In this document: positions 1 to 60,764 of the stretch, one piece after another
Layout: each line of letters begins with the position of its first letter
Position numbering within the stretch: the first letter of the stretch is position 1
Position numbers and translations under genes: made by a program
DNA from: an uncultured Planctomycetaceae bacterium
GTDB taxonomy: Bacteria > Planctomycetota > Planctomycetia > Planctomycetales > Planctomycetaceae
NCBI GenBank assembly: GCA_963815195.1
Contig: CAWFGE010000022.1
Span: forward strand, 160,001-224,000
DNA length: 64,000 nucleotides
Direction of reading: 5' to 3'
The notes under the pieces: generated by a model
What the model saw: only the letters and a program-made list of their open reading frames with translations
Told to the model about the DNA's origin: nothing
Databases searched by the model: none

Positions 1-2032
1 TGATGGCTGTCGAAGCGCAATTCGGACAAGGGGAAATCATCGCGGGGATCGAACCCCGTGATCGGGTTGGGCGACCGCGGGGTCGAGTGCACGGCATTGG
101 TCGGGGCGCCGCGATTGAGTTGGCTTCCGTCCGACGCCCAGGCTTTGGGCGCGATGCCCCCAGATAACACCGCGCCAGCCGATTGCGGTAGAGCGCATTC
201 AAGCTGAAGGTGTTGATGTTGATTCGCCGCGATGCGAAAACCGTCAACGCGCACAAGACGGCGATCGTCAGGCACATCGCCTCAAGCAACCGGAGCTTGG
301 CGGCGACGGGATCCGCTTCTCGAACCGTCTGGCCGGTCGGCGATGTCGCCTGAAGCTGAACCTGTTCGACGGAAGCCAGATACTCTTCGGGCGTCTCGGA
401 AAAGCCCCAAACCGGCACGAAATAATCCGTAATGAAGGAGGTGATAATGATCAGCCCGATCAGAAACACGATCGGCACGATGCGAACGGCGTATTTGCCG
501 AACCGCCCCGTCTGGCCCTGTGAGACGTTTCGGCCCGCCATCATCCCGCTCGCGACGGCGGAGACCCAACCCGCTCCGAGCACGGCTCCGATTCCTGCGA
601 GTTTCCGCTCCAAAGCCAGAATCAGCCACGGTCCCCAGATGGACAACCCGACGATCGCGAGCCACGCAAAAACATAAATCATGGCGGTGCCCGTCAGGCT
701 CGCCCACCATTCGCGAATCGCCTCGCTCCAAAGCCTCGAAATAAGTCCGACTTGAATATAGGCGATCAAGATCAATGCCGACAGAAATAAAGGCGGACCG
801 AGCGTGAGCGCGAGCACCGAACCGTCCCGGCCGACGACGCTGAGGGAATGCAGCAGCGTGAAAACTTGATAAAGCAGCATCCCGCCCACAAATCCCGTCA
901 AGAGTCCCAAACCGACGCGGGCCAGTTGCAGCATCACGCTCTTGCTCAGATGCATGTCCTCCAAATGTTGAGGCTGATCCAGGCCCACCAGCAAATGAAA
1001 CGTTCCGACCAAGACCGCCATGGCCAAACCGGATAACAGCCTCGCAAACCAGATGGGGTCCAGCGGAATCCCACGTTCGACTTCCGGATAAATCACGCGG
1101 CCGATCAAATCGACCGGGCCCGTTTGCCCTTCGAAACGCGCATGGCACAACCACGCGACCAGCACGCCCAAAATGAGCAACGGAATCATGATGTGACGAT
1201 GAAGATACATCCGCTCGCGGCGAAAGCTCGCCGGCTGTTTCTTTTCCCGGTAACTGCCGCGGATCTGCTGCATCGACCGGTGGATCCAGCGAAAAACCAG
1301 CACCAGCATCACCACGACGAGCGTTTGACCGGCGACCCAAACCACGTTTTCCCAGTTTCCCGAATTTTGATTGTCGGAGGTCATATTGAAGACCATGATC
1401 AACAGCCGCTCCGACATAATCATCCCCAGCAGCAAGGGGATGAGCACCAGCAGGTTCAATAACAAATTGCGAAGATAAATCGAAAACAGCCCCCAAGTGT
1501 CCGCGGAAAAGAACCCGAGCCGCGGCGTGAGATAGTTGCTATACGCGCGAAGATGGTGGATCGGTTCGGGTTCCGCATCGAAGACTTCGCCGGCTTTTAG
1601 GCCGTCCCGCGTGGCGGCGGCTTGGTTGACTCGGCTGGATTGCAACTGCAATTCGACGTTTTCGGTGCTGCCTTCGCGTTTGATCCAGGCTGCAAGCCAA
1701 CTCCCCACAAATCCGCCGCCGGAAACCGTGGAGAGGTAATCGAAATACTTCAAGAGCCGGTGGTCCGCGAGGCCTTGCAGGATGCCGAGATTGAATGTCG
1801 CGCTGCGGATGCCGCCCCCGGAAAACGCCAAACCCACCACGTCCTCGTCGAGCGCTTCTTGGCGGATTTGTTCGAGGGCTTCGCGCAAGCCGGATTCCGC
1901 GGATTTCGCGGGCCGATTTTCTTCACGGGCTTCGTCCGCGCCGAGTTGATTCGCTCGCCGGCGCTCGCGGATGGCCGCCAGCTCCTCCGCGAGAACCGCC
2001 GAAAAGGGAATCGGGAATTGACCGTCGGCCAC
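1..2032 (-). CDS. Patatin/cPLA2-like phospholipase with multi-pass membrane region (runs off the window start; apparent frameshift near 146)
   Basis: Manual translation from GTG at 2032 (GAGGA upstream) gives GLAFSGGGIRSATFNLGILQGL and DYLSTVSGGG (oxyanion and nucleophile Ser motifs), hydrophobic helices, then RININTFSLNALYRNRLARCYLGAS. NPITGFDPRDD follows in a neighbouring frame. Missing from the ORF track because there is no stop in the window. Confidence 0.85.
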   Translation of the reverse strand, partial: MADGQFPIPFSAVLAEELAAIRERRRANQLGADEAREENRPAKSAESGLREALEQIRQEALDEDVVGLAFSGGGIRSATFNLGILQGLADHRLLKYFDYLSTVSGGGFVGSWLAAWIKREGSTENVELQLQSSRVNQAAATRDGLKAGEVFDAEPEPIHHLRAYSNYLTPRLGFFSADTWGLFSIYLRNLLLNLLVLIPLLLGMIMSERLLIMVFNMTSDNQNSGNWENVVWVAGQTLVVVMLVLVFRWIHRSMQQIRGSYREKKQPASFRRERMYLHRHIMIPLLILGVLVAWLCHARFEGQTGPVDLIGRVIYPEVERGIPLDPIWFARLLSGLAMAVLVGTFHLLVGLDQPQHLEDMHLSKSVMLQLARVGLGLLTGFVGGMLLYQVFTLLHSLSVVGRDGSVLALTLGPPLFLSALILIAYIQVGLISRLWSEAIREWWASLTGTAMIYVFAWLAIVGLSIWGPWLILALERKLAGIGAVLGAGWVSAVASGMMAGRNVSQGQTGRFGKYAVRIVPIVFLIGLIIITSFITDYFVPVWGFSETPEEYLASVEQVQLQATSPTGQTVREADPVAAKLRLLEAMCLTIAVLCALTVFASRRININTFSLNALYRNRLARCYLGASRPKPGRRTEANSIAAPRPMPCTRPRGRPTRSRGSIPAMISPCPNCASTAI

Positions 2033-2155
2033 CGGGCTTGTTCCTCAAGTTGAATCTTGCTGACGATCCTTGATTAAAGAGTCCTATCCTTTCCAACGTA
2101 CCGGCCAAAACGAGGCGCAAGCAACAAAATTCTCCCGCGAGTGGCCTGGGACGCT

Positions 2156-4138
2156 TCACTCCGCGCGGTGCTCTTTTTGTGGCGGCGGGGGATCCTGGTG
2201 GACTTTCAGGTATTCCACAAGGGCCCAGCGGTCCTCGTCGGCCCAATCCGCGCCGTATTCATGCCCGGCGTTCCTGTTGCCTTCGATGGACGTATCAAAT
2301 TCAAAGAGCTTCTTGCCGGTCGCGGCGCCGGCGGTGTCCGGCTTCCAGACAAATCCCACGGATTTGGGATCGAACTCTTGCGATCCGACCAGAAAAGTTT
2401 TCGGACGTTCGGAGGCAGGCAACAGCAAATGATAAAGCGTCGGCACCGATCCGTTGTGCAGATAAGGAGCCGTCGCCCAGACGCCCTCGAGCATGCGGCC
2501 GGGATAAACCGGGCCGCCGGTGACGGTCATCGTGTCGCGCCAGACGACGGGCAGCCGATCCGCTTCCAGGTGGTCCATCAATTCCTGCCGGTCGGCGGAC
2601 ATTTTGGACCTGGCTCGTTGTTGAAGGGCCTCGAGCATGGTGCTGATGGACTCGGCAAATCCGACGGTCGAGCCGTCCGCTTTATACACGGGCCGATCGA
2701 AGTTCGTCGCCACCACCGGATCGGTCTTGACCTCGTCGAGCGAGTAGAGGTTGACGACGATCAGCCCCTGTTTGTTGACGCCCTCGGGCGTATGACACTT
2801 GGCGCAATGCTCTTGATAGAGTGCCTTTCCTCGCTCGACCCGCTTCTCATCAGGAGCGCCAAACACATCGCCGGGCCACTTGGGGGGCGTGATCTTTTGG
2901 ATTTGTTGCTCCATCAGCATTTGATTGACGATGTTGACCGACGTGTCGAACGACTCGGAATCGAAGGTCGCTCCCACGCCGATCGCTTCGCCGATGCTTC
3001 GCTGGATCACCGAGTTGGTATTGGCGTTCCAGTGGAGCCATTCGTATTTGTGGATATTCCAAAGCGGCGGCACACTGACCGGGGCGTTGACCGGCAGCAT
3101 GTTTTTTTCGTTCCAACCGGCGAACAACTCGACGCGGGCGGTGCCGAAGTCGTCGGCCCGCCCGTAGCCCGCTTCCAGCCGATGTCCCGGCTGCGACAGC
3201 CAATTTCGCACTTTGAGAAACGCCAGCCGGTATTTGAGATCCCGCATGTTCCCGTCAAATTCGCCGAGCAGCCTCTCGATCACTTTCTTCCGCTCTTCAA
3301 CCGTTTCGGATTTCAACGGGCTGTTCGGTCCGAAGGACTTATCCGCCAGGTCGGCGGCAAGGGCTTTGACGTCGGCGAGCTTTGCATCCGTGGATTTTTC
3401 GATCCCCTCCGATCGGATGGCACCAATCTCGTGGCGCAACTGGCCGAGCCGGGCTTTGAGATGATCTGCGATTCTGCGTCCGACGTCGCCGTCTTTTTCC
3501 AGGTCTTTGAGCTTCGCAAATTTGCCGATCAACTCTCCGGCGATTTTGCTTTCCTTGGTCAGCCGCTTCAGGAACGCCCAGAACTCTTCCGGATCTTTGA
3601 GCGTCGCGTTGACCGATTCGCCGACCGCGTCGCCCAGCCGATCGACATAAAACAGCCCCGACCCGCCCTCGACGCGGACGACTTTTCCCTGGTAGTGCAA
3701 GTCCGAAGTATGGCATGCGGCACACGTAAAACCGAACATCTCGATTTCCCGGTCGCCGGACTTGATTGTGTTGGTCACGATGCCGACGGGAAACCCTTCG
3801 GGATTGCGGGGCGATTTCTTGCCGGGCACCAGGCCGAATCGCTCGAGGTTTTCGAGAAACGGCCGGCCCGTTTCGCTGTCATTGAGCGCCCGCACGACGG
3901 CCATGGGAAAAAAACCGCTGCCTTGCTCCGAGTAGTGCACGAGGTCCGCATCGTATCCCGCCTGCGTATTGATTCCCATCGGAACCGCCGCGACCGATGG
4001 ACCCCCAGGCGTCTCACCACCTGTTCCATTTGACGGGGAGTTCGATTTCTCGCCGGGCGGCGTCTTCTTTTCGCTCGTGCACCCAAGACACATTCCCACG
4101 CCTAAGACCACACACCACGCGACGCGAGGAAGGGACAT
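2156..4138 (-). CDS. Di-heme cytochrome c lipoprotein, RoxA/MauG-like family
   Basis: Two CxxCH motifs (CAACH, CAKCH), GVWATAPYLHNGSVPTL motif, lipobox-like MCLGC, GGAG RBS before ATG 4138. Confidence 0.85.
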   Translation of the reverse strand: MSLPRVAWCVVLGVGMCLGCTSEKKTPPGEKSNSPSNGTGGETPGGPSVAAVPMGINTQAGYDADLVHYSEQGSGFFPMAVVRALNDSETGRPFLENLERFGLVPGKKSPRNPEGFPVGIVTNTIKSGDREIEMFGFTCAACHTSDLHYQGKVVRVEGGSGLFYVDRLGDAVGESVNATLKDPEEFWAFLKRLTKESKIAGELIGKFAKLKDLEKDGDVGRRIADHLKARLGQLRHEIGAIRSEGIEKSTDAKLADVKALAADLADKSFGPNSPLKSETVEERKKVIERLLGEFDGNMRDLKYRLAFLKVRNWLSQPGHRLEAGYGRADDFGTARVELFAGWNEKNMLPVNAPVSVPPLWNIHKYEWLHWNANTNSVIQRSIGEAIGVGATFDSESFDTSVNIVNQMLMEQQIQKITPPKWPGDVFGAPDEKRVERGKALYQEHCAKCHTPEGVNKQGLIVVNLYSLDEVKTDPVVATNFDRPVYKADGSTVGFAESISTMLEALQQRARSKMSADRQELMDHLEADRLPVVWRDTMTVTGGPVYPGRMLEGVWATAPYLHNGSVPTLYHLLLPASERPKTFLVGSQEFDPKSVGFVWKPDTAGAATGKKLFEFDTSIEGNRNAGHEYGADWADEDRWALVEYLKVHQDPPPPQKEHRAE

Positions 4139-4366
4139 CGTTTTCTCCAGCTTGAGGGAAGGCCATTTGAATGGTTGGCACGAGACGGGCACAGGATTCT
4201 GCGAAGTGTTCACCATCCTAAGCGAGTGAACCGAAAAATCCCAGGCAGAATGTCATACTGTTCAAATGCGGGAAGAGCGTCTCTGTTCGTGGCCTGCCGT
4301 TTCGCCTATTCTCTAGACGGAAGCGAGTTGACCCGAACGCGACCTCGAGCCGAAATGGTGGGCCAA

Positions 4367-5242
4367 ATGCACGATGACTTCAAATCGGGCACATTGAAAG
4401 CGAATGGAATCGAGTTTGGTTTTCTGGAAGCCGGGGAAGGCCCGCTCGTCTTGCTGCTGCATGGGTTCCCCGATAATGCTTACACATTCCGTCATCAACT
4501 GCCTGTCCTGGCGGATGCGGGTTATCGGGCGGTCGCGCCGTTTCTGAGGGGCTATGCCCCCACGACGGTGGCGGCGGGTTCTTATCAAACCGCGGTGCTG
4601 TGCCGGGATGTCTTGGCGCTGATCGATGCGCTGGGCTACGACGAGGCCGCGGTGTTCGGCCACGACTGGGGGGCCGTGTTGGCGATGGGGGCCGCGGAAA
4701 TCGCGCCGGAAAAAATCCATCGGCTCGCCGCGGCGTCCGTCCCACACGTGGCACCGCTGTTTGCCTCGTTGGTGAACAACGCCGACCAGCAAAGGCGAAG
4801 CTGGTACATTTATTTCTTCCAACTTCCCATCGCGGAGACAGCGGTTTCCGCGGACGACTTTGCATTTCTCGATCGCCTCTGGCAGGACTGGTCGCCGGGT
4901 TGGAACTATCCCGCGGAGGTGATGGCGAACGTGAAAGACACGCTGGGAAATCCCGGCGTCTTAGGGGCCGCGCTGTCGTACTACCGTTGCCTGTTCGATT
5001 CTTCCGGCTTCGACCCGGCGGTTGAGGAGATTCAAGCGACGCTGTTCAGCACGCCGATTCAAGTTCCGACGCTCTACTTTCACGGCGAAAAGGACGGCTG
5101 CATCGGCGTGGAATTGGTGGAGGAAATGGATCCCTTCTTCGCTCACGGATTGGAGAAGGTCATCCTTCCCGCGGGGCATTTCGTCCAACAGGAGGCCCCC
5201 GACGAAGTGAACCGGCATTTGCTGGCGTTTCTGAAATCGTGA
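4367..5242 (+). CDS. Alpha/beta hydrolase, epoxide hydrolase type
   Basis: HGFP oxyanion motif, Asp nucleophile in GHDWGA, candidate ring-opening tyrosines in SWYIYFFQ and LSYYR, catalytic His in GHFVQQE. Confidence 0.85.
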   Translation: MHDDFKSGTLKANGIEFGFLEAGEGPLVLLLHGFPDNAYTFRHQLPVLADAGYRAVAPFLRGYAPTTVAAGSYQTAVLCRDVLALIDALGYDEAAVFGHDWGAVLAMGAAEIAPEKIHRLAAASVPHVAPLFASLVNNADQQRRSWYIYFFQLPIAETAVSADDFAFLDRLWQDWSPGWNYPAEVMANVKDTLGNPGVLGAALSYYRCLFDSSGFDPAVEEIQATLFSTPIQVPTLYFHGEKDGCIGVELVEEMDPFFAHGLEKVILPAGHFVQQEAPDEVNRHLLAFLKS

Positions 5243-5257
5243 CGCCATCCCGGAGGA

Positions 5258-8200
5258 TCAATCGGCTTCGTCGAGCAGACGCCTGGCATCGACAAGATCG
5301 GGCGTTGCAAAGCCTTCGCAAAACCAGCCGAAAACCTCCGCCAACAAAGCCTGGCCTTCCGCGGATCGGCCTTGCGTTTTCCGCAGCCTTGCCAGCGACA
5401 TGGCCGCGCGCAATTCCCACGACTTGGCCCGCTGCACCTGGCCGATTTCCAGCGACTTTTCCAAGCAGGCTTCCACAGCGGGCAGATCGGCGGATTGCTC
5501 CAGGAGCAGTTCGCCTTTCCGCCGGAAGAGTTCCGCTTCGTAGTAGCGATCCTGGTGGAGCGCGGCGATCTCCAGTGAATGGTCGAGCGTTCCGAGGGCT
5601 TCGTCCAACCGGCCGGTCCGCTGCTGGGCTTCGGCGAGAAAACTGTAATAGTAAGGCAGCGACAGCGCCGCTCCCGTGGCTTTGATCGTTTCAAGCCCTT
5701 CTTGCACCAGGTCCAGCACTTCGTCCACGCGGTCCAAAAGCAACAGCGCGGACGAGCGGTACAGCCGGCTCGTCGCCGACCAGAACGCGAAGCCGTGCTT
5801 GTCCGCGAGCCGTTGCTCGGCCTCGGCATATTCCAGCGTCTTTTCGCCCAGCCGGGCATATTGATGCACCCAGGCGCTAAAGTGCAGGGAATAGCATTGG
5901 CTGAAAGGGTGCTTCAAATGGTGGGCCAGGTCGATGGCGGATTCGATTCGCTCGAGCGCCTGGTCGGGATACCCCAGATGCCAATTCGCGAGAGCCCAAT
6001 AACTCTGGAGCGTCACGCCCGAGTTCTGGCCGCTGCGGTGACAGTGCATCCGGCAGCGGTCTTCGTCGTAGAGTGCGAAGCCGTCCTCGCAGTGCTTCCG
6101 AGCGGCCTCGAAGTCGCCAAGGTAATACAGAGAATTGGCCGGGACGTGATGGGCTTCCATCATCATGCCGGGATCGCCGAGCAGTTCGGCGAGCGACATG
6201 ATTTCCTCGGAGAGCTTGAGGCTGAGCACCAACTCGTCGCGGACGAGCCGCCACGCCCAAATCCCGAACAGCACCACGAACGAATTCCACTTGTCGCCCA
6301 CGCGTTCGCAAAGTTCGCGGGCCCGGTCGTAAACCGGCCCCACCTCCGGGGCGGCATACCCGCGGGTCGAGACGAGCGCGGCGCCCAAGGGAACTTTGAG
6401 AACCAATTCCAACTCATCGCGATGCGGCGATTCCTCCAATCGCTCCACAAGGGCCAGACCGCGATGGACGCAACTGATCGTCTCGGCGTGAGCCGACTTT
6501 TCCGCCGCCAACGTCGCGGCCTGACACCAATACTTGACACCTTGTTCCAACTCGCCGGCTTCCGCGAAATGCCAGGCCAAGAGCGCCGGATCGGTCCCGG
6601 GCATCTCCTCGAGCACCTTGGCGACGCGGAGGTGAAATTGCCGGCGTTTGTCCTTTAGCAGCGTTTGGTAAGCGGCATCCTGGATCAGCGCGTGCTTGAA
6701 GATGTAGACGCACCTGGGCGGCCGGCCTTTCTGATAGATCAATTCCGCGAGGATCAGTTTGTCGAGTTCGATCTGCAGGTCCGCCTCGTCGAGTTCGGTG
6801 ACCGCGCGAATCAGCTCATGGCCGAATTCCCTCCCCACCACGGACGCCAATTGGACGATGTCCATGTCGCTCGCCATGCGGTCCAACCGGGCCAACAGCA
6901 GGTCCTGCAGCGTCGCGGGAATTTCCTTGACGGGAAACGTCGCGGACATCTCCGTTTCGCCGTCGATTTCCCGGAGCGTGCCGGTCTGCATGACCATTGT
7001 GGTAAACTCTTCCACAAACAAAGGCACGCCGTCGGTGCGGTCGATCACCGATTGAACAATCTGGGCGGGAATCTGATTCAAGCCCGATTTGCGCTGCATC
7101 ATTTCCGCGATTTGGCGTTTCGTCAGCCGGTTGAGCGCGACCTGTGTCTGATGCGCGAGGCTGCTCCAGGGAGTTTGGAATTCCGGGCGAAACGTCAGAA
7201 TCGTGAGCACGCTGTCGTTGAGTCCCTCCGCGACATGGTACTCGAGAAACTCGAGCGTCGAGGGATCGACCCAGTGGAGATCCTCCACGATGAACAGAAC
7301 CGGCCGGTCCCGCGACATCTCGCGGAGCCAATCCTGCAAGACTTCGATGGTCCGCTGCCGCCTGCGATCCGGACTCATTTCCAAAGGCGGGCACCGGCCG
7401 TCGAGCGGCAACGACAACAGCGACGCCAAGAGCGCGAACTCCTCATCGCCGTGGAGCGCAATGTCTTCGAGGTGCCCAGCCAGACGGTCCAAGCGGTCGG
7501 CGGGGGCATCCTCGGGCTGGAAATTGAGCAACCGCTCGAAATACTCCCGCGCCGCAAACAGGCTGCTGTTCGCGTGCAAAGGCGAACAGAACCATTCGAC
7601 GATCTGTTGTGCCGGCTCTTCCGGCTCTTCCGGCTCTTGATCGGCGAGCACGTAGTCTTTGATCGTGTAAACCAGCCGCGATTTTCCCAGCCCGGCCTCC
7701 CCGATCAAAAGCACGATCTGGCCCATGCCTTCCACGGCCTGATCCCAGCGGTCCACGAGCAGGCCGACTTCGCGGTCGCGTCCCGTGAGCGGCGTCAACT
7801 CGCCCAGATTCGCCGCCCGGTCGATCCGGCTGAGAATCGGCCGCTCGCCGGTGACCTCGAAGAATTCCAGTTTTTGCGAGACGCCCTTGAAGCGAAACTG
7901 GCCGAGGCTTTCAAAGTCGAAATAACCCGCGGTCAGACGTTTTGTCGCTTCGCTGACGATGACCATTCCCGGTTCCGCGACCTGATCCAGCCGGGTGACG
8001 ATGCTCCGCGGTTCGCCGACGATCGAGAGCGAATCGTGACCGATGCTTCCGCGCCCGGCTTCTCCAATCACAACGTGCCCCGTATGCAGCCCGATCCAGG
8101 GCGCGAGGTCGAGCTTTTGTCTTTGGAGATCGGCATTCAGCATTTTGACGCGCTCTTGCAGCTTGAGCGCCGCCTGCACGCTCCGCCGGGTCGAATCCTC

Positions 8201-9588
8201 ATGCGCCAGCGGATACCCGAAGCAGACCAAAACGCCTTCATTGCCGGATTGAACCAGTGTGGCGTCGAACTCTTCGATGATTTCGTCGCAGAGCGACTGA
8301 TACTCCCGCAGGATGCGATGCTGGTCCTGGGGATCGACTTCCTCCAGAAATTCCGACGTCTCGAAAAGATCGCAGACGCAGAACATCATCGTGACCTGCC
8401 GGCGTTCGGCCTCCCGCGCCCGCCGAATCGAGGAGGCCGTTCGATCGCTTTTGGAGGATGACTCCTTCAAAAAGTCCTCGGAGGGCGGGGGCTCTCGCTC
8501 GAACGACGAAGATCGGTCGATTTGAGAGACCGTCGGATCCAGGAGGACGGAGGGTCCCGCCTGGTCGCCTGAATCAAAGGGCGGTTGCAAAATGACGGGA
8601 GACGTGTGTGCCTTGAGGACCCGGCGGAGATCATCGGCGAAGTCGCTCGCCGTCGTGTCGGCGCATTCAACGATTTCGACATGGCTTTGAGGCAGATCGC
8701 CTCGACCGCGGCCGGTACATGCGGGGCGATCTGGCGGGGCGGCTGCGGCTCGTCTTCGCAGACCTGCCGCAAGATCTCCGCCGCGGTCGATCCGTGGAAC
8801 GGGACCCGGCCGCAGAGCATGCGATAAAGCACGACCGCCAGCGAATAGATGTCCGTCCGGCCGTCGATACGGTGCCCTCGGCCCGCGGCTTGTTCCGGCG
8901 ACATATAGGTCACCGTGCCCGCGACCAGTCCGACTTCCGCGCCGGGATCGCCGGCGTCCGTATCGCTGACCGCCAATCCAAAATCCACAAGCACCGGCTT
9001 TTGATCGCTCGTCAACAGAATGTTTCCCGGTTTGAGATCCCGGTGCACAATCCGGCGAGCATGCGCGTGGGCGAGCGCATCGGCGACTTCGGCGACAATC
9101 GCGACGGCCTCTTGCCAGGTCGGCCGGTATTGCTTGAGCCATCGTTCCAGATCCGTGCCGGCGATGTAATCGGAGACGATGTAGCATTGCCCGTCGTCCA
9201 CGCCCAAATCGAACACGGTCACAATGGCCGGATGCCTCAACTGCGCCAGATCGCGCGCCTCTTTCAGGAACCGGTCCACTTCCTCGGGGGAGTGGAGCAC
9301 GTGACGATGCGGGGCCTTGATCGCCACATCACGATTGAGCTGCCTGTCGTACGCGCGGTAAACCGTGCCGAACCCTCCCCGGCCGAGCACGTCTTGAATC
9401 TCGAAGCGGCCGATCGTTTTCGGCATGGCCGCGGCGGTCTCCCGATCCGCCGGGACAACCGGTTTGATCGTGTCCGCAAACGCGTCCGATCGATGCGAGT
9501 TTGTATCGGGATGCGAACCGTCAGGCTTCGCCGGGTTGGGGGCGGCATTGTCCGGCGTGCCGACCGGTTCTTTGTCTTGAGAACTCAT
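5258..9588 (-). CDS. Ser/Thr kinase + class III cyclase-like domain + P-loop ATPase + TPR protein (frameshift near 8660)
   Basis: Kinase motifs GRGGFG, AIK, HRDLKPGN, DFG, YMSPE in ORF 8467..9897. ERRQVTMMF, GEAGLGKS, LFIVEDLHW and the C-terminal AKSWELRAAMSLARL lie in ORF 5258..9187. The frames join at KAMSKSLNA / TTASDFADDL. Confidence 0.85.
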
Positions 9589-9728
9589 CAAACTCGTTGC
9601 TCGCGGTTCTGAACCTCTCCTGAAAAACGCCCCGTCATCATACCGCGAAGCAAACGCTTCCCACAACATGAGAAACGGCCTGGGCGACGCCGTTGACGGG
9701 AAGATAGATCCGTTAGGACTTTGCGGGG

Positions 9729-10409
9729 TTAGCGTCCTGGGCGGATTTGGGGATGCAGCGCCCCGCCCTCCACAACGTGTTCGATGCCGAGTGCCGCGAG
9801 CATCGCGAGACCGCCGACCCACGCGAGCGTTGTTTCGCCGCTCATTCCGAGAAACGAGCCGCCGGCTTTGCCCAACCGGTTGAAATACAGCCAGCAAAAG
9901 CCGCCGAGCGTTTCATAAAACGTGATCAGCCCCGTCTTCGCCTGCCAGAAGTAAAACCCCCAAGGCTTTTGCTGCATGATGTGCAGCTCGTAGCTGTGCT
10001 GAAGTTGCTCGCCGACGAACAGAATCGCCACCGCGGCGAGGATCCCCGCGATCTGGAATTGGAGGGTCCCGTCGCCCGGCTTGGTGCCAAAACGGTCGAA
10101 GATCCACACGAACAGCATCCACACGATAATTTCACTGAGCGTGATCAGCAGCAGATTCGCAAACCGCTTCCAGGCCGGAATCTGGGCGGCCGTTACGCCG
10201 ATGCCTGAGCCGAAATTTGTTTTGGCCCACCAGACGACGGTCAGGCGTTCGATCATAAAACCGGTCCACAAAGCGATTGTGGAGAACACGTATTTGTTGA
10301 GGAAGTCCGTCTGGTCGAAAAAGTACAGCCAGCCCATCAAGGCGAACCATTCGCCGAAGGTCGCGATAAAGAAGGGGAGTTTCTTCTTTCGAAAATCGTC
10401 GAACGTCAT
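9729..10409 (-). CDS. Hypothetical ~6-TM membrane protein
   Basis: Alternating hydrophobic segments; internal repeat TxxE..W / GxxxE(H/R); AAGG-like purine run upstream is weak, so start is approximate. Confidence 0.7.
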   Translation of the reverse strand: MTFDDFRKKKLPFFIATFGEWFALMGWLYFFDQTDFLNKYVFSTIALWTGFMIERLTVVWWAKTNFGSGIGVTAAQIPAWKRFANLLLITLSEIIVWMLFVWIFDRFGTKPGDGTLQFQIAGILAAVAILFVGEQLQHSYELHIMQQKPWGFYFWQAKTGLITFYETLGGFCWLYFNRLGKAGGSFLGMSGETTLAWVGGLAMLAALGIEHVVEGGALHPQIRPGR

Positions 10410-10607
10410 ATGGTTCGCTTTCCAAGGTGGAATGTCGGCGGATGAGCCTCTTGAAAGGTTCGTCCCCATCGAGTGGTGGATGCGTCACTCTACCCATGAA
10501 CACATCGACAAGTCAACGAGATAGCCCGTATAATCCTCACCAGCCCGGGAGACCCATTTCGGGGTTGAAGGAACGCACACGATCAGAACCCGATGATTGG
10601 AATTCCC

Positions 10608-11642
10608 ATGACGCCGCGTCCACCCTTTGAAAGCCATCGGCGGTTTACGTGGTTCAAGCCGGAAAAGGCCTTTCCCACCGAATACGAGTCGCTCACGGTC
10701 GGGCAGCAATCCCGCCCGGAGGAATGGATGCACGTCGATTGGCCCGTCCGGTTCGACGACGGCCGCGCTCCCTTTGTGGAAGACTCCACCGCCCTCCGGT
10801 CCGTGGATTGGAAAGGCTTTCGCGACCCGGCGGGATTATTGCAACGAACTCACGTGGCGACGACCAATCGTCAGGAACAGAGCTTGGCGTCGTTCCTTGA
10901 AGAGTCCCACCGCCAAAACCTGTTGAGCCGGCTCAATCCCGCGTGGCGCGACAGCGTGATCGGGAAATATTACGCGGCGTGGCCGTTCGTGGAATACGGC
11001 CAGTTTCTTGCCTTGAGCTATGCGGTGCGGGAAGCCCCGGCGGCGGCTTTGACGTTTGGCCTGGCGTACCAGATCTCCGATAAACTCCGGCACGGCCAGG
11101 ACATCGTGCATTACCTTGCCCTCTTGGAGAACGCAGTGCCCGGGTTCTCGGATGAAAGAGCCCGCGACGCCTGGATGAACGATGCCGCCTTCGTGCCCCT
11201 CCGCGAGCATCTGGAGCGGATTATCCAGACTCGCGACTGGGGCGAGATCATGATTGCCATCCACCTGGTCCTCGAACCGCTCGCGGGCAAGCTTTTGAAA
11301 TCGGAACTGGTGGCGAGGCATGCTGCGGTTCACGGCGATCCGATCTCGCCGGTCATCCTGGCCAACGCGGGAGCCGACGTGCAAAGGCATCAGCAATTCG
11401 CGGTTCAGTTCGCAAAGTTTCTGACCGCGGATCCCCAATTCGGCGAAAGCAACCGCCACGTAATTCGCGGCTGGATGGAGAAGTGGGTTCCAGAAGGCGA
11501 ACAGGCCGCCGCCGCGCTCAAGCCGATTTTTGAGTTGGAGGGTGTATCGCTCGAACGGTTCGAGGACTGCTACGACCGGATTCGCGCCGGGCATCGACGG
11601 ATCATCGCCGGCGCGACCGGATCACCGAAAGGATCCCCATGA
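10608..11642 (+). CDS. Soluble di-iron monooxygenase beta subunit (alkene monooxygenase AmoA/EtnA-like)
   Basis: HRRFTWFKP..PTEYESLTVGQQS..EWMHVDWPVRFDDGRAP..RDP and YAAWPFVEYG resemble recalled Rhodococcus AmoA; its stop overlaps the next start (ATGA). Confidence 0.9.
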   Translation: MTPRPPFESHRRFTWFKPEKAFPTEYESLTVGQQSRPEEWMHVDWPVRFDDGRAPFVEDSTALRSVDWKGFRDPAGLLQRTHVATTNRQEQSLASFLEESHRQNLLSRLNPAWRDSVIGKYYAAWPFVEYGQFLALSYAVREAPAAALTFGLAYQISDKLRHGQDIVHYLALLENAVPGFSDERARDAWMNDAAFVPLREHLERIIQTRDWGEIMIAIHLVLEPLAGKLLKSELVARHAAVHGDPISPVILANAGADVQRHQQFAVQFAKFLTADPQFGESNRHVIRGWMEKWVPEGEQAAAALKPIFELEGVSLERFEDCYDRIRAGHRRIIAGATGSPKGSP

Positions 11643-11941
11643 GCGACTTCGAGGTTTTGAAACGAGATCGAATCGGCGTTTCGCTGATGAACAGCGCGGA
11701 AACGGAAGCGGCCGTCGCGTGGCTGCGCGACCAGTGTCCCGACGCCAGCGTCTCGTTCCGCGATTGCTATTTCAAAATCGAGCGGGATCACGAACTTCGA
11801 TTCGATTTGTCGGCGATCTCGAATTATCTGGGAAGCGAACTCGACGTGGAGACGTTCCTCATCAACCTGAGTTCGTATTACGGGCGCATCGTGGTCGAAG
11901 AGAACTCGATCCGCGTTGTGTCGGAGATTTCTTCAATTTGA
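11639..11941 (+). CDS. Monooxygenase coupling/regulatory protein (MmoB/DmpM family, AmoB/EtnB-like)
   Basis: 100 aa; RIGVSLMNSAETEAAV, FRDCYFKIERD, FLINLSSYYGRIVV; sits between beta and alpha subunits. Confidence 0.9.
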   Translation: MSDFEVLKRDRIGVSLMNSAETEAAVAWLRDQCPDASVSFRDCYFKIERDHELRFDLSAISNYLGSELDVETFLINLSSYYGRIVVEENSIRVVSEISSI

Positions 11942-11976
11942 CGATGGGTCGAACAATCGATTCTCCGAGGAGCAAA

Positions 11977-13484
11977 ATGAAGCCGAGGAAAAACCCCCTC
12001 CTGTTCGATAAGATCGCGTCCTACGACTGGCAGTTCACGACGTCCGAGCGGCAGCCTCCTTTTAAGACGAAGTACGCGATTCCGCACAAAGGCCCCGATG
12101 CGTTTCGGCTTTTGATTCGGGACTATATGCGCATGGAAGCGCAAAAGGACGATCGAACCTACGGGTTTCTGGACGGGGCCTTGCGGATGCGGATGGCCGA
12201 ACAGGTGGAACCGCGGTTCAACGAATGCCTCAAAATCACCTTGCCCGACACGACCAACGCCGAGTATCAGGCCGTGCTGCGCCTGCGGCGGGATTATCGC
12301 GTCTTTTGAAAACCAGGAGCTGCGGCAAGGCTATTACCACCAGATGCTGGACGAAATCCGGCATACGCAGATCCAGATGAAGCTGAGGGAATACTACGTG
12401 AAGCACGCTCCCGACCCGGCGGGTTGGGACATCAATCAGAAGGCGCTCTACCAGCACCCGGCCGGTCTGGTCTCGCTCGGGGAAATGTACCATTTCCATA
12501 CGGGCGACCCGATCGACTGCATTATCGACCTCAACGTGATCGTCGAAACGGCTTTCACGAACGTGCTGCTGGTCGCCGTCCCTCAAGTCGCGGTGGCGAA
12601 CGGCGATCATGCGCTGGCCACGTCGTTCCTCTCCATTCAGTCCGACGAATCGCGGCACATGGCAAACGGTTACGGGTCCCTGTTGTGCGTGCTCCGCGAC
12701 GAACAGAACATCCCGCTGGTCAACGACGCCATCGAACGGCATTTCTGGCGGTGCTCACAAATCGCTCGACGCCATTACCGGTTGGCAGTGCGAGTACGGG
12801 GCACGCGTCAGGCCTTGGGCCTACAAAGACCAATGGAAAGAGTGGATCGTCGACGATTTCGTCGGAAGTTACATCGCCCGGCTGGAACCCTTCGGCGTCC
12901 AGACCCCGCGGTACTTAGGTCGCGCCTTGGACGACGTCCAATGGATGCACCACACGATCGCCCAGTTCCTGGCATCGATCTGGATGCTGAATTGCTGGCG
13001 CACGGACTGCTTGGACGCCGCGGATTACGATTGGTTCGAAAAACACTATCCCGGTTGGACAAATTATTATGGCAAGTTCTGGGATGGGCATCGGCAGATG
13101 ACGGATCCGGCGGATGGGATGATCATGTTGAAGCAACTGGGCTCGGTGCCCGCCTTTTGCCAGGTTTGCAACGTGCCTTGCGTTGTGCCGCGCCCGGATA
13201 TCAACGAAGGCCGGATCACCGAAATCGACGGAAAGCGGTACGCGGTGTGTTGCGAGCCGTGCGAGTGGATCCTGCGGAAATGGCCGGCGGTCTACACGGG
13301 CCGCCGTCAATGGACCGAGCGATACCACGGCTGGGATCTGGCCGACGTCATTCTTGATTTGGGCTACATTCGACCGGATGGAAAGACTCTGATCGGCCAG
13401 CCGTCGCTGGATCTCGACCGCCTGTGGACGATTGAGGACATCCGCAACTTGAATTACGAAGTCCGCAATCCCTTGGCGAAATAA
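11977..13484 (+). CDS. Soluble di-iron monooxygenase alpha subunit (AmoC/EtnC-like), split by two frameshifts (~12280, ~12750)
   Basis: Three consecutive ORF pieces carry all iron ligands: TNAEYQ, MLDEIRH, VETAFTN, QSDESRH, plus C-terminal CQVC..CCEPC and YHGWDLADVI. GAGGAG RBS before ATG 11977. Confidence 0.9.
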
Positions 13485-13659
13485 ATAGAAAACGTCTCGG
13501 GGCCCATCCGGGGCCGCCCATCGGCACACGCCCACTGCCGGGCAGGATGTTCAATTCTTTCGGCCCCGGCAAATCCAGCAGGGTCGGCGGTCGCGAATCC
13601 TGCCGCCACCGGTTAATCGCGGGCGGCCGTTTTTCCTCCGCACCATTGTTATCAGAATG

Positions 13660-13676
13660 ATTGACGCGCAGTCAAT
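13660..13676. promoter_or_regulatory. Palindromic operator-like site ATTGAC-N5-GTCAAT
   Basis: Perfect 6-bp arms in AT-rich intergenic DNA, about 110 bp upstream of a sigma-54 motif. Confidence 0.4.
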
Positions 13677-13783
13677 ATGATGACGATTTATGTAGGATCC
13701 TGGAGCGGATCTCGTTGTCGTCACTGTTCTTAACTCATTTTGTAATAATTGGTTATAACATTTAATCCAACCGTGTCACGGTT

Positions 13784-13799
13784 TGGCATTAAAAATGCT
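13784..13799 (+). promoter_or_regulatory. Putative sigma-54 promoter (-24/-12)
   Basis: TGGCATTAAAAATGCT has GG-N10-GC spacing, ~70 bp upstream of CDS 13867. Confidence 0.55.
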
Positions 13800-13866
13800 T
13801 CGTATGCTAAGTATCCACTGTTGATGGATTTCTGAGTTTCAATGGCATTCCGACAAGGAGATTGAG

Positions 13867-14217
13867 ATGAAAAAGGGTCTTGCAATCGCAGCGTTGGGTT
13901 TGGCGGCCGCGTTTTTTGCCTTTGGGCCTAGCACCGCCCAGGCCGGGCATCACGGACATTGCCGGAGCGGGTATGGCTACGGCGGATCCCGCGGCGGACT
14001 TGGGCTGGGGCTTGGGCTGGGAAACTTGCTCGGCGGCCGGGGCTATGGATACGGCAACTACGGCCGGTCTTATTCCGGTTACAACCGCAATCCCTATTAC
14101 TACGGCAATCGCGGCGTGCCCTACGGCAATTACGGTTACGGCCGAGGCTACGGCTACGGCGGCTACGGCAACGGGGTCCAAGTCCGAACCCCGGGCTTCA
14201 GCTTAGGCCTCTGGTAA
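13867..14217 (+). CDS. Secreted Gly/Tyr-rich low-complexity protein
   Basis: Signal peptide MKKGLAIAALGLAAAFFAFGPSTAQA, GYGYG repeats, AAGGAG RBS. Confidence 0.8.
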   Translation: MKKGLAIAALGLAAAFFAFGPSTAQAGHHGHCRSGYGYGGSRGGLGLGLGLGNLLGGRGYGYGNYGRSYSGYNRNPYYYGNRGVPYGNYGYGRGYGYGGYGNGVQVRTPGFSLGLW

Positions 14218-19135: not shown

Positions 19136-19318
19136 TTGCGCAGGCGTTTCCCCATCCAAGAGCGGCGATCCCGGCGGCGCGGGGTCTCCACGTTGGATTA
19201 CGCGTTGGTCCTGGGCGTGGTGCTGCCTCTGGCGGCGATCGTCGTGCCCACGAGCATCCGCATGGTGCGGGCCGTGTATGAAATGGTGGTGGTGATGATC
19301 GCGTGGCCGTTCCAATAG
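19136..19318 (+). CDS. Flp-like pilin (start uncertain)
   Basis: RRG|VSTLDYALVLGVVLPL prepilin-like cleavage site followed by a hydrophobic helix; upstream of another pilin and a prepilin peptidase. Confidence 0.6.
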   Translation: MRRRFPIQERRSRRRGVSTLDYALVLGVVLPLAAIVVPTSIRMVRAVYEMVVVMIAWPFQ

Positions 19319-19347
19319 TTCCAACGTCCCGAACCGGGAGCAAGTTC

Positions 19348-19551
19348 ATGTCGCTTCGAGAAGTTTTCAAAAAGTTGCACCGGGATGAGCGGGGCGTGGT
19401 CAGCTTGGAAACGGTGCTCATCATCGCCGCCGTCGCTTTGCCCGTGCTGATCATCATCATCAAATTCGGCTGGCCGAGGATCAAATCCTATTTCGACACG
19501 GGCATGAACCAGCTCGAACGCGAATCCAACGACGCCATCCAGGGCAACTGA
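19348..19551 (+). CDS. Flp family type IVc pilin
   Basis: KLHRDERG|VVSLETVLIIAAVAL; GGAG RBS. Confidence 0.8.
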   Translation: MSLREVFKKLHRDERGVVSLETVLIIAAVALPVLIIIIKFGWPRIKSYFDTGMNQLERESNDAIQGN

Positions 19552-19660
19552 CGGGGAAAATGGCCAATGCCTTTGGGCGAGCGTGGGGCGTAAGCCCCAT
19601 GATGTCTGGGAACGACCAATCCCTCCGAAAACATTTCAAAGAATATCCAGCGGGAATTCC

Positions 19661-20182
19661 ATGTCGGAATGGTTGTTGGCGGGGTTGTTGATTGTCGCCA
19701 GCATCACCGACGTCGGTTGGCAGAAGATTTATAACTGGACGACTTACCCCGGTTTGCTGTTGGGACTCGTGCTGGGCGGACTGCAATTCGGCTGGCCGGG
19801 CTTGGAAGACCGGCTGCTCGCGGTGCTGTTGTGCGGAGGATTGATGTTGTTGGCGTTTTTGCTGATGGGCATCGGCGGCGGCGATGTGAAGCTCATCACC
19901 ATGATGGCCGCGTTTTTGGGGATCGAGCGCGGCGTGGAAGCGATGCTGTGGACGTTCGTTTTGGGAGCGATCGCCGCCGGGGCGGTTTTGATCTGGCAGC
20001 TCGGAGCCTGGCGGATCCTCAAAAAAACCGCCGAGCAACTCCGGGTCGTCCTCAAAGCCAAAACCTGGGTGCCCTTGACGGAAGCAGAACGCCAACCGTT
20101 AACGCGAGGCTTGTTCCTCGCCCCGTCCGCGCTCGCCGCGGTGTGTTTGTTGTGGGCTAACGATTCGTACCATTGGTTTTGA
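19661..20182 (+). CDS. A24 prepilin peptidase (TadV/CpaA-like)
   Basis: ITDV..KIYNW and GIGGGDVKL catalytic Asp motifs; multiple TM helices. Confidence 0.9.
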   Translation: MSEWLLAGLLIVASITDVGWQKIYNWTTYPGLLLGLVLGGLQFGWPGLEDRLLAVLLCGGLMLLAFLLMGIGGGDVKLITMMAAFLGIERGVEAMLWTFVLGAIAAGAVLIWQLGAWRILKKTAEQLRVVLKAKTWVPLTEAERQPLTRGLFLAPSALAAVCLLWANDSYHWF

Positions 20183-41862: not shown

Positions 41863-42759
41863 TCATTCAAACAGTCGCAACTGCTCGTGTTTTTCGAGCA
41901 CGGTTTCGCTGTAAGAGGCTTCAAAGTTGGTGATTAAAGCTTCCATCATCGGGTTGCGGTTTTTCTCTTTGGCCCCCACATGATAAAAATGCTCCCGCGT
42001 GAGACAGCCATATTCCGACCAGATCGTCTTCAGGAACATGTTCTCGCGGTAATCATTGCTGTGCCAGGTGGAGAGGATAAACCTCGCTTGCGAGCCATCC
42101 AGAAGCGTTTTTAGCGCCCGCTCATCCTCTTCGTCCCATCCGTTAAAGTAATCCACATGGCGGCCAATATACGGAGGATCGCAGTAGATGACGTCCGAAG
42201 CCTCGGCAAGAGCCACCGAATCGCGAAAGTCCTGGCAAACAAATTGATAGTTGCCGAATGCGCAAACATCCGCAATCACCTGAATCTGATTGCAGATTTT
42301 GGTAATGTAGGCCGGTGCGAAACGGTTGGGCTTTCGGCAAAACGGGACGTTGAATTGCCCTTTCCTGTTAAACCGAATCATCCCATTGAAGCAGGCCCGG
42401 CTCAAAAATAAAAAATCCAGCGGAGAATGGGATTCATTAAACCTAAAGCGCACCTCATAAAAATGCGCGTCCCCCAACCGTTCTAGCAATGCTCCTTCCT
42501 CTTGCAGAAACCGGCGCGCGATCGCAGCGGTGATTTCTTTGTTTTGGACGGCGGTGTAGAACCGAATCAAATGGGGATTCGCATCGGCCAGAATTGCTTC
42601 GGAGGGTTGGGCGTTGAAGGCCACGACACCCGACCCCATGAACGGCTCCACCCAACGCCCCGAAAAATCCTTCGGGATGATCGCCTTGATCCAAGGAACC
42701 AGCTTCGATTTAATGCCTTGGCACTTGATTGGAGGAATCATCGTGCGATGCGTGGTCAT
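41863..42759 (-). CDS. Dam-family N6-adenine DNA methyltransferase, M.EcoRV-like
   Basis: [42 protein letters not shown]. Confidence 0.92.
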
Positions 42760-43583
42760 GGTAGATTATTCCGGGACACGATCAAAGACATGTCGCCATT
42801 GCGAAACTGCACAAAATCGTCCAAACGCGTAATCTTCTTCGGTTTTCCGTCAGCATCTTTGACGACGATTTTTCCGAAGTTCATCCAGTAATCATCGAAC
42901 CATTCCTCACCCAGCTTACTAAACATTCCTGTGCCGTCCAAGATGTCTTGAATCCGTCTAATGCTGCCGATGTTTTCGGTATTCCCTGAGCCACCTTTGT
43001 CCCCTGCGATTTGCCATTTCTCAGCCACAAAAAACTGAATGTTGGAAATCACCGAAGTGATCGAATGCAAATGATCCAGGGAATAAGCCTTCGTTTCATC
43101 GATTGTCGCGTTTTCCGCGCGATCATAGATAATTCCCAGGCAAAAATGACCGGCATAAGAACCGTAGGGGAATTGGATGTTTTTCGTGCTGGTCCGATCC
43201 TGAAAATACTTGCCATGAGAACCCAGCGTGAATCCATTACACAGCCAAGGCTTGGAGGGAAGACGATAGGTGGTTTTGAAATCCACGGCGAACTTGACCG
43301 ATTCATCGTTGGCCAAAACGAAAGAGATATCGGGATAATAGTTTTGGTGATCCGCCAAAACCAGCCGATAGCCATGCTGTTCCGCGAATTGGCGAATTCG
43401 CGGAAAAAGATGAATCTCTAATATCTTTGAGACGATCTTCGTGTCGGAAGAGATTGTGTAAACGTTGCGGCAGGTGTCGATAAACCCCTTCACGGTCCAT
43501 TGCCCATCATCGGTGCTGACATGCTCATTCAGGTTTGCCGCCAATTCGGTCAGAGCAATCATAAAATCCTGTTTGTCGGGCAT
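42756..43583 (-). CDS. EcoRV-family type II restriction endonuclease
   Basis: [21 protein letters not shown] (PD..DxK), [27 protein letters not shown] recognition loop; ATGA overlap with the MTase. Confidence 0.88.
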
Positions 43584-43641
43584 GGACGAAGACTTTCTAT
43601 TCCAAATGATACGACTTTCCCGAAATCGTTGGACCCCCAAG

Positions 43642-55220: not shown

Positions 55221-55267
55221 AGCCGCGAAGCGGCGACAGCATATAGCTGCGGGCGTCAGCCCGCAGA
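55221..55267. repeat. REP-like element (AGCCGCGAAGCGGCGACAGCATATAGCTGC family)
   Basis: Direct near copy of 56645..56691. Confidence 0.75.
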
Positions 55268-55287: not shown

Positions 55288-56520
55288 CTAGCCGCCGAAG
55301 TCGTCGAAGGCGATGTTTTCGGGTTCCACGCCCAAGTCGTCCAGCATCTTTAACACCGCTTGCAACATCAAAGGCGGGCCGCAGATGTAGTATTCGATGT
55401 CTTCCGGCGCGGGGTGCTCCTTCAAATAGTTCTCCAAGAGCACCTGATGAATAAACCCTTGATAGCCGGTCCAATTGTCTTCCGGCAGCGGTTCGGAAAG
55501 GGCGATGTTGAACTTAAAGTTCGGGAAGTCTTTTTCGATGGCCCGGAACTCATCGACATAGAACAATTCCCGCGAAGACCGGCCGCCGTACCAGTAGGAC
55601 ACTTTGCGGTTCGTCTTCTTTTCCTTGAAGAGTTCAAAGATATGCGATCGGAGCGGAGCCATGCCGGCCCCGCCGCCGATGTAAACCATCTCGGCGTCGG
55701 TCTCTTTAATAAAGAACTCCCCGTAAGGGCCGGAGATGGTGCACTTGTCGCCGGGCTTTAGGTCGAAGATATAGGACGAGACTTTTCCCGGCGGCGTGCC
55801 TTCGGGAGCGCGGGGCGGCGGCGTGGCGACCCGCACGTTGAGCATGATGATGCCTTGCTCGCCGGGATAGTTCGCCATCGAATACGCCCGGAACACGGGT
55901 TCTTTGACGATCGACTTGAACCGCCAAAGGTTGTACTTGTCCCAGTCCTCGTGGAAGCGTTCTTCGATGTCGAAGTTCTTATACTCCAGTTCGTGGGGCG
56001 GGACTTCGATTTGAATAAAACCGCCCGGCTTGAAGTTCACACCATCACCTTCAGGCAGTTCCAAAACGAGTTCCTTGATGAACGTCGCCACGTTGCCGTT
56101 GGAGCGGACGGTGCAGTTCCAACGCTTGGTTTCCAAGGCTTCTTCGGGGACTTCGATCTTCATGTCCTGCTTGACGGCGACCTGGCAGGAGAGGCGGTAG
56201 CCTTCGCGGGCATCGCGCTTGTTGATGTGGGTCCGCTCGGTGGGCAGGATGTCCCCGCCGCCTTCAAACACCTGGACTTTACACTGTGCGCAGGTCCCGC
56301 CGCCGCCACAGGCGGAGGACACGAAGATCTGATGATCCGCCAAGGCACCGAGCAATTTCCCACCCGCGGGCACGGACAACGTCTTTTGCTCATTGATGAC
56401 AAGCTGCACGTTCCCCGACGCGACGAGTTTCGATTTCGCGGCCAGAATCACGGCTACGAGAATCAATACCACGGCAGTAAACATGCCGACGCCTAAACCG
56501 ATTTCCGTCAATGCTTCCAT
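55288..56520 (-). CDS. nqrF: Na+-translocating NADH:quinone reductase subunit F
   Basis: [15 protein letters not shown] 2Fe-2S motif, [20 protein letters not shown]. Confidence 0.97.
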
Positions 56521-56644
56521 AGGGGCTTAATGCCTCTTATTGCGAATTTGAGAATAGTCGACAGGGAGAGTCATTTGGAATCGCTCGAGAAAAAATCGTC
56601 TCGAATTCCTACTAACCGGCCAGTGAAGTTTTCGGCCCTGCCTT

Positions 56645-56871
56645 AGCCGCGTAGCGGCGACAGCATATAGCTGCCGGCGTAAGCCGGCAGATTCGGGGTC
56701 CAAAATCCGAAAAGCCGCGAAGCGGCGACAGCAATTGCATCAACCCAGCGATGGGTAAAGTCGCGCCGACTTACTCATCCGTTGCTAGTGCCGCTTCGCG
56801 GCTTCCGATCTTTTCTTATTCTGACTCTGCGGGCTGACGCCCGCAGCTATATGCTGCTGCCGCCTCGCGGC
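56645..56871. repeat. ~230 bp REPIN/MITE-like palindromic element between nqrE and nqrF
   Basis: gccgcgtagcggcgacagcatatagctgc... has the inverted partner ...gcagctatatgctgctgccgcctcgcggc, with internal hairpins. Confidence 0.8.
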
Positions 56872-56899
56872 GAACGCATATCCGCTAACTGCTAACGGT

Positions 56900-57496
56900 T
56901 TACAATTTAATGCCCGAAAAGGCCATAAAGGCCATGGCCATCAGGCCGACGGTAATAAAGGTGATGCCCAGCCCGCGGAGACCGGGTGGGACATCGCTGT
57001 ATTTGAGTTTTTCGCGAACGCCCGCCAGGGCCGCGATCGCCAAGGCCCAGCCCAAGCCGGAGCCGAACCCGAACACCACGCTTTCCGGGAAGTTATAATC
57101 CCGCTCGACCATAAACAACGTGCCGCCCAAAATGGCGCAATTCACGGTGATCAAAGGCAGAAAGATGCCCAGGGCCGAGTGCAGCGCGGGGACGAACCGG
57201 TCCAGGGCCATTTCCAAAATCTGCACCATGGCCGCGATCACGCCGATGTAGGAAATGAGGCCGAGAAACCGCAGGTCCACGCCTTGGACGATGGAGCCTT
57301 GCTTTAAGACGTGCTGAAACAGCAGATTATTCACGGGCACGGTGATGGCTTGGATGACGACCACGGCCGCCCCCAGGCCCAGTGCGGTTTTGACGTTTTT
57401 GGAGACCGCCAGAAAGGTGCACATCCCCAGGAAAAACGCGAGCGCCAGGTTTTCGACGAACACGGATTTGACGAACAGGCTGAGATAATGTTCCAT
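56900..57496 (-). CDS. nqrE: Na+-NQR subunit E
   Basis: [42 protein letters not shown]. Confidence 0.96.
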
Positions 57497-57500
57497 GAGA

Positions 57501-58127: not shown

Positions 58128-58194
58128 TTCGACCTCCCTTCGGGGGAAGTTGTTGGACGAATGATTGTCGCTCGAACGGCCCGCACAGCGGACC

Positions 58195-60544: not shown

Positions 60545-60585
60545 TCTGTGTTCGTTTTTCTGTTTGCCCAAGGCGGACCCTGCTC

Positions 60586-60743: not shown

Positions 60744-60764
60744 CCACCCAGGTCGCACGGTCGG

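Follow-up and report, generated by a model that had tools for sequence, protein, structure and literature searches.

A stretch of 64,000 nucleotides (nt) from an uncultured Planctomycetaceae bacterium (assembly GCA_963815195.1, contig CAWFGE010000022.1, positions 160,001 to 224,000; hereafter the window) carries three adjacent genes for a soluble di-iron monooxygenase (SDIMO) of group 4, the group of the alkene monooxygenases AmoABCD and EtnABCD. We confirmed that this three-gene operon is genuine, and found it to be under strong purifying selection in two Planctomycetaceae genomes: G000, the source genome of the window, and G001, a sister species (completeness ~94% for both; G002 and G003 belong to the same genus). 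The reading we favour, with a probability of about 0.45, is that the enzyme would epoxidise an alkene with electrons from host ferredoxin and ferredoxin-NADP reductase (FNR) or from NqrF, and that an epoxide hydrolase would then give the diol, without coenzyme M (CoM).

A three-gene group 4 operon

The operon comprises the following elements (MO, monooxygenase; aa, amino acids).

10505..10534, + strand: sigma-70-type promoter-like site ahead of beta; 11/12 consensus positions, block conserved in G001
10608..11642, + strand: hydroxylase beta subunit, AmoA/PmoA-like; 344 aa, intact; PF02332, E 5.5e-56
11639..11941, + strand: coupling protein, MmoB/DmpM family; 100 aa; PF02406, E 3.3e-20
11977..13484, + strand: hydroxylase alpha subunit, group 4 propene-MO subgroup; ~501 aa over three reading frames

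The start of the coupling gene overlaps the beta stop by ATGA, 35 nt separate coupling and alpha genes, and 382 nt lie between the alpha stop and the next open reading frame (ORF), an unrelated Gly/Tyr-rich one of 116 aa at 13867; there is thus no room for a gamma subunit, a Rieske ferredoxin or a reductase. A first-pass annotation of this DNA had reported the order beta, coupling, alpha without gamma or Rieske ferredoxin, an arrangement typical of group 4, and only intergenic DNA directly after alpha; gene spacing and the PF02332 and PF02406 matches bear out both statements. G000 (8.9 Mb, 94.6% complete) contains three PF02332 matches, all from this operon. A weaker opposite-strand promoter-like site (9/12) overlaps the one listed; both are consensus matches, of which 1.2 are expected in shuffled sequences at the 9/12 threshold. 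Alpha shows the ligand pattern of SDIMO hydroxylases (E, DExRH twice, E), including both DExRH motifs noted earlier, with all six iron ligands present in both genomes (E101, E131, H134, E195, E229 and H232 in G001 numbering), and beta has no such motif.

The alpha phylogeny across SDIMO groups 1-6 that the first-pass annotation had proposed as a check placed alpha inside group 4. In a quick tree of 135 rows, with references taken from annotated plasmids and database proteins, alpha fell into a 72-row clade that holds all 8 group 4 references (SH-like approximate likelihood ratio test, SH-aLRT, 100), while references of groups 1, 2, 3, 5 and 6 lay outside it. Within this clade alpha belongs to the propene-MO subgroup (62 rows, support 100); a careful 61-row alpha tree agrees (subgroup 100/100), and the beta tree mirrors the alpha tree. 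Alpha is 65.5% identical to HCU95584, 61.6% to AmoC of PE-TB08W, 61.5% to PmoC of NBB4 and 54-55% to EtnC, against 43% for group 6, 37-38% for groups 3 and 5, and 21-24% for groups 1 and 2; beta is 47% identical to PmoA of NBB4 and 40% to EtnA of JS614. The proposed likeness to AmoABC and EtnABC therefore holds, with alpha nearer to PmoC/AmoC than to EtnC. The same sampling contained a separate 21-row clade (P0061-P0088) that includes alphas named as Binatia and Deltaproteobacteria; it contains no reference enzyme that has been characterised and, with this sampling, falls outside groups 4 and 6.

A recent review describes group 4 by at least 50% identity to EtnC of NBB4 and by the operon order beta-coupling-alpha-reductase (PMC11825192). 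Against WP_014805824.1, taken as EtnC of Mycolicibacterium chubuense NBB4 from its etn context, alpha scores 54.7% (window, with X at the breaks) or 55.2% (G001). The fourth gene, an FAD/[2Fe-2S] reductase, is absent after alpha and was not found genome-wide in G000 or G001, and the operon is therefore a variant, not a canonical four-gene member. Its closest known relatives are PmoABCD (M. chubuense NBB4) and AmoABCD (Halieaceae PE-TB08W), subgroup C of Yang, Kertesz and Coleman 2025, with which it shares gene order, clade and all iron ligands. Unlike them, it lacks a reductase gene, its genome has neither EtnE nor ComA, its host is a planctomycete, a gene for a membrane protein lies divergent to it, and in alpha Thr replaces Leu at the Leu110-equivalent and Met replaces Phe at position 175; PE-TB08W itself has amoD and a CoM system (PMC6440738). 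EtnABCD (Nocardioides JS614 and M. chubuense NBB4; subgroup B) has the same gene order and iron ligands, but forms a separate subclade and has etnE directly upstream and etnD downstream, neither of which is found here. ZmoABCD of Solimonas soli (group 7, defined by at least 60% identity to ZmoC), which oxidises alkenes, has the same gene order according to the review; our operon is set apart from it only indirectly, by the position of alpha among group 4 references.

Compared with the uninterrupted 506-aa alpha of G001, to which it is 92.6% identical, the alpha gene of the window is split by two one-base insertions, one near 12277 and one at 12752; its three pieces contain no in-frame stops. 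The base at 12752 is missing from contigs of two runs from two studies, X1 and X2, which show one other differing letter each over 504 and 360 nt at a depth below 5; X1 may be the source sample. In the X1 contig, the neighbouring membrane-protein gene is likewise free of an extra base that the window has at 9756. The contigs neither reach the break near 12277 nor span 13591-14093. Given that the base at 12752 is absent in contigs from both studies, we regard the two frameshifts as probable assembly errors. A 328 kb alignment of G000 and G001 contained 48 isolated non-triplet indels in coding-like DNA, 26 of them extra bases in G000, and the 24 single-base extra sites (alpha's two breaks included) were enriched for GCGC (5/24 versus a 3.6% background) and GANTC (4/24 versus 2.8%), which suggests motif-linked long-read errors.

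That the operon in G000 is a recent pseudogene, the dead operon that the first-pass annotation had allowed for, is hardly credible. Two frameshifts within 1.5 kb are more than the background rate would give (26 extra-base indels in 328 kb, or ~1 per 13 kb), and the break near 12277 lies outside the coverage of other data. However, the second break and a third indel nearby are absent from otherwise near-identical contigs, and the extra-base sites are enriched for the motifs expected of long-read errors. Selection argues in the same direction: the ratio of non-synonymous to synonymous divergence (dN/dS) between the two genomes is 0.044 for alpha, 0.098 for coupling and 0.156 for beta (72% identical), compared with 0.17-0.20 for three neighbour genes. 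The operon's dS (0.84-1.11) is above that of the neighbours (0.55-0.59).

The missing reductase and coenzyme M genes

The first-pass annotation had found neither a reductase nor etnE or CoM genes and called for a genome search. When four SDIMO reductases were searched against G000, the sole full-length match was NqrF, and no AmoD-type reductase was found genome-wide in G000 or G001, where the best matches were again NqrF.

55288..56520, - strand: NqrF; TIGR01941, 665 bits versus a cut-off of 295; inside the nqr operon

The claim thus stands for the locus and for AmoD-type enzymes in the genome, but the window does contain one [2Fe-2S]-FAD-NAD protein, NqrF; family searches returned no other protein in either genome that combines Fer2 and NAD-binding domains. 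We rejected NqrF as the cognate reductase because it matches TIGR01941 and sits inside the nqr operon. In addition, a stand-alone [2Fe-2S] ferredoxin is encoded in G000, as is an FNR-like ORF with an apparent frameshift. Neither EtnE (PF01717) nor ComA (PF02679) was found in either genome (0/2 each), in agreement with the first-pass annotation, and EtnE and CoA-transferase gave no tblastn match in G000; by these two markers, the other CoM synthesis genes not having been searched, the genomes lack CoM-dependent alkene assimilation. The Na+-NQR operon spans 55288-62144 (- strand; nqrF assigned by NCBIfam, the other genes by eye), and two Acido-Lenti-1 RNA (RF01687) matches, at 55221-55266 and 56645-56690 (- strand), flank nqrF in it.

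Related operons place this loss in context. Among 53 metagenome loci, 33 were informative (the end of alpha plus at least 300 nt; the 20 too short were left out). A reductase-length match directly follows alpha in 28 of the 33, a 100-110-aa Fer2-only gene ending in a stop in two (L040 and L051), and nothing reductase-like in three (L039, L050 and L061). L039 and L040 join G000 and G001 in a 10-row clade (100/99), and L051 is nearest (87%) to P0009 of that clade. Of the five subclade loci whose downstream DNA could be read, none has a full reductase, versus 28 of 30 outside the subclade. Reductase erosion is, on this sequence evidence, a trait of the subclade, in which a ferredoxin-only stub or nothing appears to be left; the five loci are kin and not independent events. 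The Fer2-only gene (L040:2901-3203 and L051:985-1290) occupies the reductase position, is conserved and looks like a maintained stand-alone ferredoxin. A weak G000 match to this stub was judged spurious, as it lies on the strand opposite a long ORF.

It is very unlikely that the system is a conventional group 4 one whose reductase, and perhaps CoM genes, are missing from both assemblies or reside on a plasmid. Group 4 genes that have been characterised are frequently carried on plasmids (PMC11825192), and completeness of ~94% leaves some space for such genes. The reductase would, however, need to have been missed in both genomes; in G000 and G001 alike, the sequence downstream of alpha was assembled and contains unrelated genes, and the subclade relatives L039, L040 and L051 also lack a full reductase there.

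Two further group 4 operons, L043 and L046, have a full reductase; their betas group with proteins named as Polyangiaceae or Kofleriaceae, and no EtnE match was found in the DNA fetched for them. In P0150, P0162, P0185 and P0141, beta is fused to the coupling protein (PF02332+PF02406), in one case in a cluster of 113 members, or to an NAD-binding fragment; these fusions may be real or assembly artefacts.

Neighbouring genes, substrate pocket and proposed pathway

The operon is preceded in the window by five genes.

1..2032, - strand: patatin-like phospholipase gene, 5' part, running off the window; G001 orthologue PF01734, 82% identity
2156..4216, - strand: RoxA-like di-haem cytochrome c protein; NF040606 above cut-off
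4364..5242, + strand: epoxide-hydrolase-like alpha/beta hydrolase; HGFP, Asp nucleophile, two lid Tyr and His aligned to 5NG7
5258..9590, - strand: Ser/Thr kinase-adenylate cyclase-AAA-TPR gene; frameshifted here, one 1464-aa ORF in G001
9729..10409, - strand: probable multi-helix membrane-protein gene, divergent from the operon; 231 aa in G001

The 4364-5242 protein has the marks of alpha/beta epoxide hydrolases (HGxP, Asp, two lid Tyr, His), and is predicted to be one; its 38 PDB matches at E<=1e-20, led by 5NG7 (E 1e-47), all bear the name epoxide hydrolase. A close orthologue (E<=1e-50) occurs in 2 of 398 family genomes, the same two that have the operon, and the membrane-protein gene has the same distribution (2/398). 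The membrane protein is 93% identical to its G001 counterpart (dN/dS 0.078); the extra base near 9756 alters its C-terminus in G000. It gave no Pfam or NCBIfam match, no plasmid match and one marginal match in 300 phylum genomes, and its Atlas matches (0.83-0.87) are leads only. Its predicted fold has a predicted local distance difference test score (pLDDT) of 43, two segments only exceed the hydropathy cut of 1.5, and an apparent three-fold internal repeat is supported for only one of three pairs (p 0.02).

G002 carries the patatin, di-haem and kinase-cyclase genes without the operon, the hydrolase orthologue or the membrane gene, and these three genes are therefore older than the operon. In G002 itself (G002:C22:644000-663999, L092) the cluster consists of patatin, acetoacetate-decarboxylase-like, two RoxA-like di-haem and kinase-cyclase genes.

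Two segments near the iron site that the first-pass annotation had singled out, PDTTNAE and GEMYHFHTGD, do differ from the PmoC, AmoC and EtnC sequences. Among 68 sequences at least 53% identical to G001 alpha, the residue aligned with the Leu110 gate of soluble methane monooxygenase (sMMO), Thr in our alpha, is Leu or Phe in 59, and position 175, here Met, is Phe in 60. Across the subclade the gate position reads T, T, M, L, A, L, V, L, I. Leu110 and its toluene-monooxygenase analogues tune access and regioselectivity (PMC3962191), which makes a shift in substrate plausible.

In the pathway we favour, the di-iron site would activate O2, as in AmoC and PmoC, and a C=C bond would be epoxidised with electrons from a housekeeping flavin/ferredoxin system, supplied in trans by a stand-alone [2Fe-2S] ferredoxin with an FNR-like protein, or by NqrF. 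The substrate may be an alkene larger or more polar than propene, given Thr at the gate. The linked epoxide hydrolase would turn the epoxide into a diol, and the membrane protein might serve as an accessory in uptake or anchoring. An SDIMO paired with an epoxide hydrolase has a precedent in isobutylene catabolism by Mycolicibacterium ELW1, where the hydrolase IbcK clusters with the SDIMO and the alkene-epoxide-diol logic is likewise CoM-independent; the ELW1 enzyme, however, belongs to another SDIMO group, resembling the Xanthobacter Py2 and isoprene enzymes (PMC12442371).

Several observations weigh against this pathway. The hydrolase gene lies 5.4 kb from beta with the kinase-cyclase gene between them, hydrolase and membrane-protein homologues were not found in the 53 related loci (most of these contigs are short), and G000 and G001 are sister species, so that the shared distribution of operon, hydrolase and membrane protein counts as one event. 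None of the candidate donors is confined to genomes with the operon; NqrF occurs in all four genomes of the genus. Both operon-bearing genomes are only ~94% complete. Finally, the break near 12277 is outside independent-contig coverage.

A possible, if doubtful, alternative is that the subclade has left gaseous-alkene catabolism and oxygenates lipid or isoprenoid C=C bonds in a lipase and RoxA-like di-haem cluster, making or clearing epoxy-lipids, while its reductase was reduced to a ferredoxin and finally disappeared. The patatin, di-haem and hydrolase genes are all found in the 10.6 kb that precede the operon. In a sister lineage, the ferredoxin stub of L040 is directly followed by a di-haem homologue (35%, E 4e-22), the only match among the 53 loci, and L086, with a beta identical to that of L040, has a PF09994 phospholipase-family gene upstream of the operon; variation of the gate within the subclade also fits. 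Yet the lipase/di-haem link exists in two lineages only, L039 shows no such neighbour in 1.3 kb, and G002 has the patatin, di-haem and kinase genes without any operon. Furthermore, the di-haem protein looks exported (a lipoprotein-like N-terminus, by eye), whereas the SDIMO is cytoplasmic, and most pocket residues match those of propene MOs. Rather unlikely, in our judgement, is the broader proposal of an undescribed group 4 branch that would have lost its reductase stepwise (full, ferredoxin-only, none), dropped CoM and been recruited into lipase/RoxA-like di-haem clusters, epoxidising lipid or isoprenoid C=C bonds with host electrons, possibly via NqrF or the membrane protein.

We consider it quite improbable that the hydroxylase works without any protein reductase, by a peroxide shunt or as a sensor of O2, redox state or hydrocarbon wired to the kinase-cyclase via the membrane protein. 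The peroxide shunt of sMMO is established, the membrane gene points the same way as the kinase-cyclase gene and is as well conserved as alpha, and a kinase-AAA-GAF-PAS gene follows the L043 operon. On the other hand, selection has preserved the coupling protein, G002 indicates that the kinase-cyclase is older than the operon, and L043 retains its reductase.

Elsewhere in the window, an EcoRV-type restriction endonuclease (PF09233) and a D12 N6-adenine methyltransferase (PF02086) are encoded at 41863-43640 (- strand) in a low-G+C patch (0.51), and a Flp-like pilin ORF (by eye) and an A24 prepilin peptidase (PF01478) at 19303-20182 (+ strand).

Host, distribution and significance

The first-pass annotation had suspected a planctomycete host and had asked whether the contig might be chimeric. 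The contig's taxonomy, once checked, is Planctomycetaceae. A TrmB gene 3 kb downstream supports this: among its best 120 matches, all ten with organism names are planctomycete (two Planctomicrobium, seven 'Planctomycetaceae bacterium' and one 'Planctomycetes bacterium'). The window also contains a DUF1559 prepilin gene, a kind typical of planctomycetes. At 0.57-0.58, the G+C content of the region comes close to that of the contig (0.60), and third-position G+C (GC3) of the operon (0.70-0.81) matches that of housekeeping genes. Because G001 is collinear with window positions 1-13492, we rejected a chimeric insert for this part; downstream of alpha, gene order differs between the genomes.

Alpha was found in 2 of 398 family genomes, G000 and G001, and the operon was not found in the congeners G002 and G003 (90% and 85% complete). 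In 400 phylum genomes, PF02332 returned one other convincing system, in G308, plus five marginal matches; the former (G308:C82:6230-9291) is a group 1-type SDIMO in another planctomycete family. A genome-collection scan with the single G001 alpha, an exact-pattern and weak search, returned only Nocardioides pocheonensis. The view of group 4 as mainly actinobacterial agrees with the list in the 2025 review, where all 22 sequences, each given with a four-gene operon, are from Actinomycetota except that of the gammaproteobacterium PE-TB08W; the single planctomycete sequence in that review precedes the group 3/4 blocks, and its text places Planctomycetota under group 1 (PMC11825192). Database names, however, reveal group 4 relatives in other non-actinobacterial metagenome-assembled genomes (Xanthobacteraceae, Dormibacteraeota, Kofleriaceae and Polyangiaceae). 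The planctomycete host is therefore one of several unpublished non-actinobacterial extensions, and the host jump is not unique. Our survey of the open-access literature returned no planctomycete group 4 enzyme, in keeping with the earlier statement that no characterised member was known, no reductase-less SDIMO, in group 4 or elsewhere, and no RoxA-patatin cluster.

Group 4 enzymes are valued for stereoselective epoxidation and for turnover of vinyl chloride and ethene. A three-gene, CoM-free version widens the host range of the group and implies other ways of feeding electrons and of handling epoxides; its substrate gate is naturally altered as well. In metagenomes, the propene-MO subgroup proves much larger, and spans many more taxa, than published work shows, and the intact G001 operon provides directly testable material.

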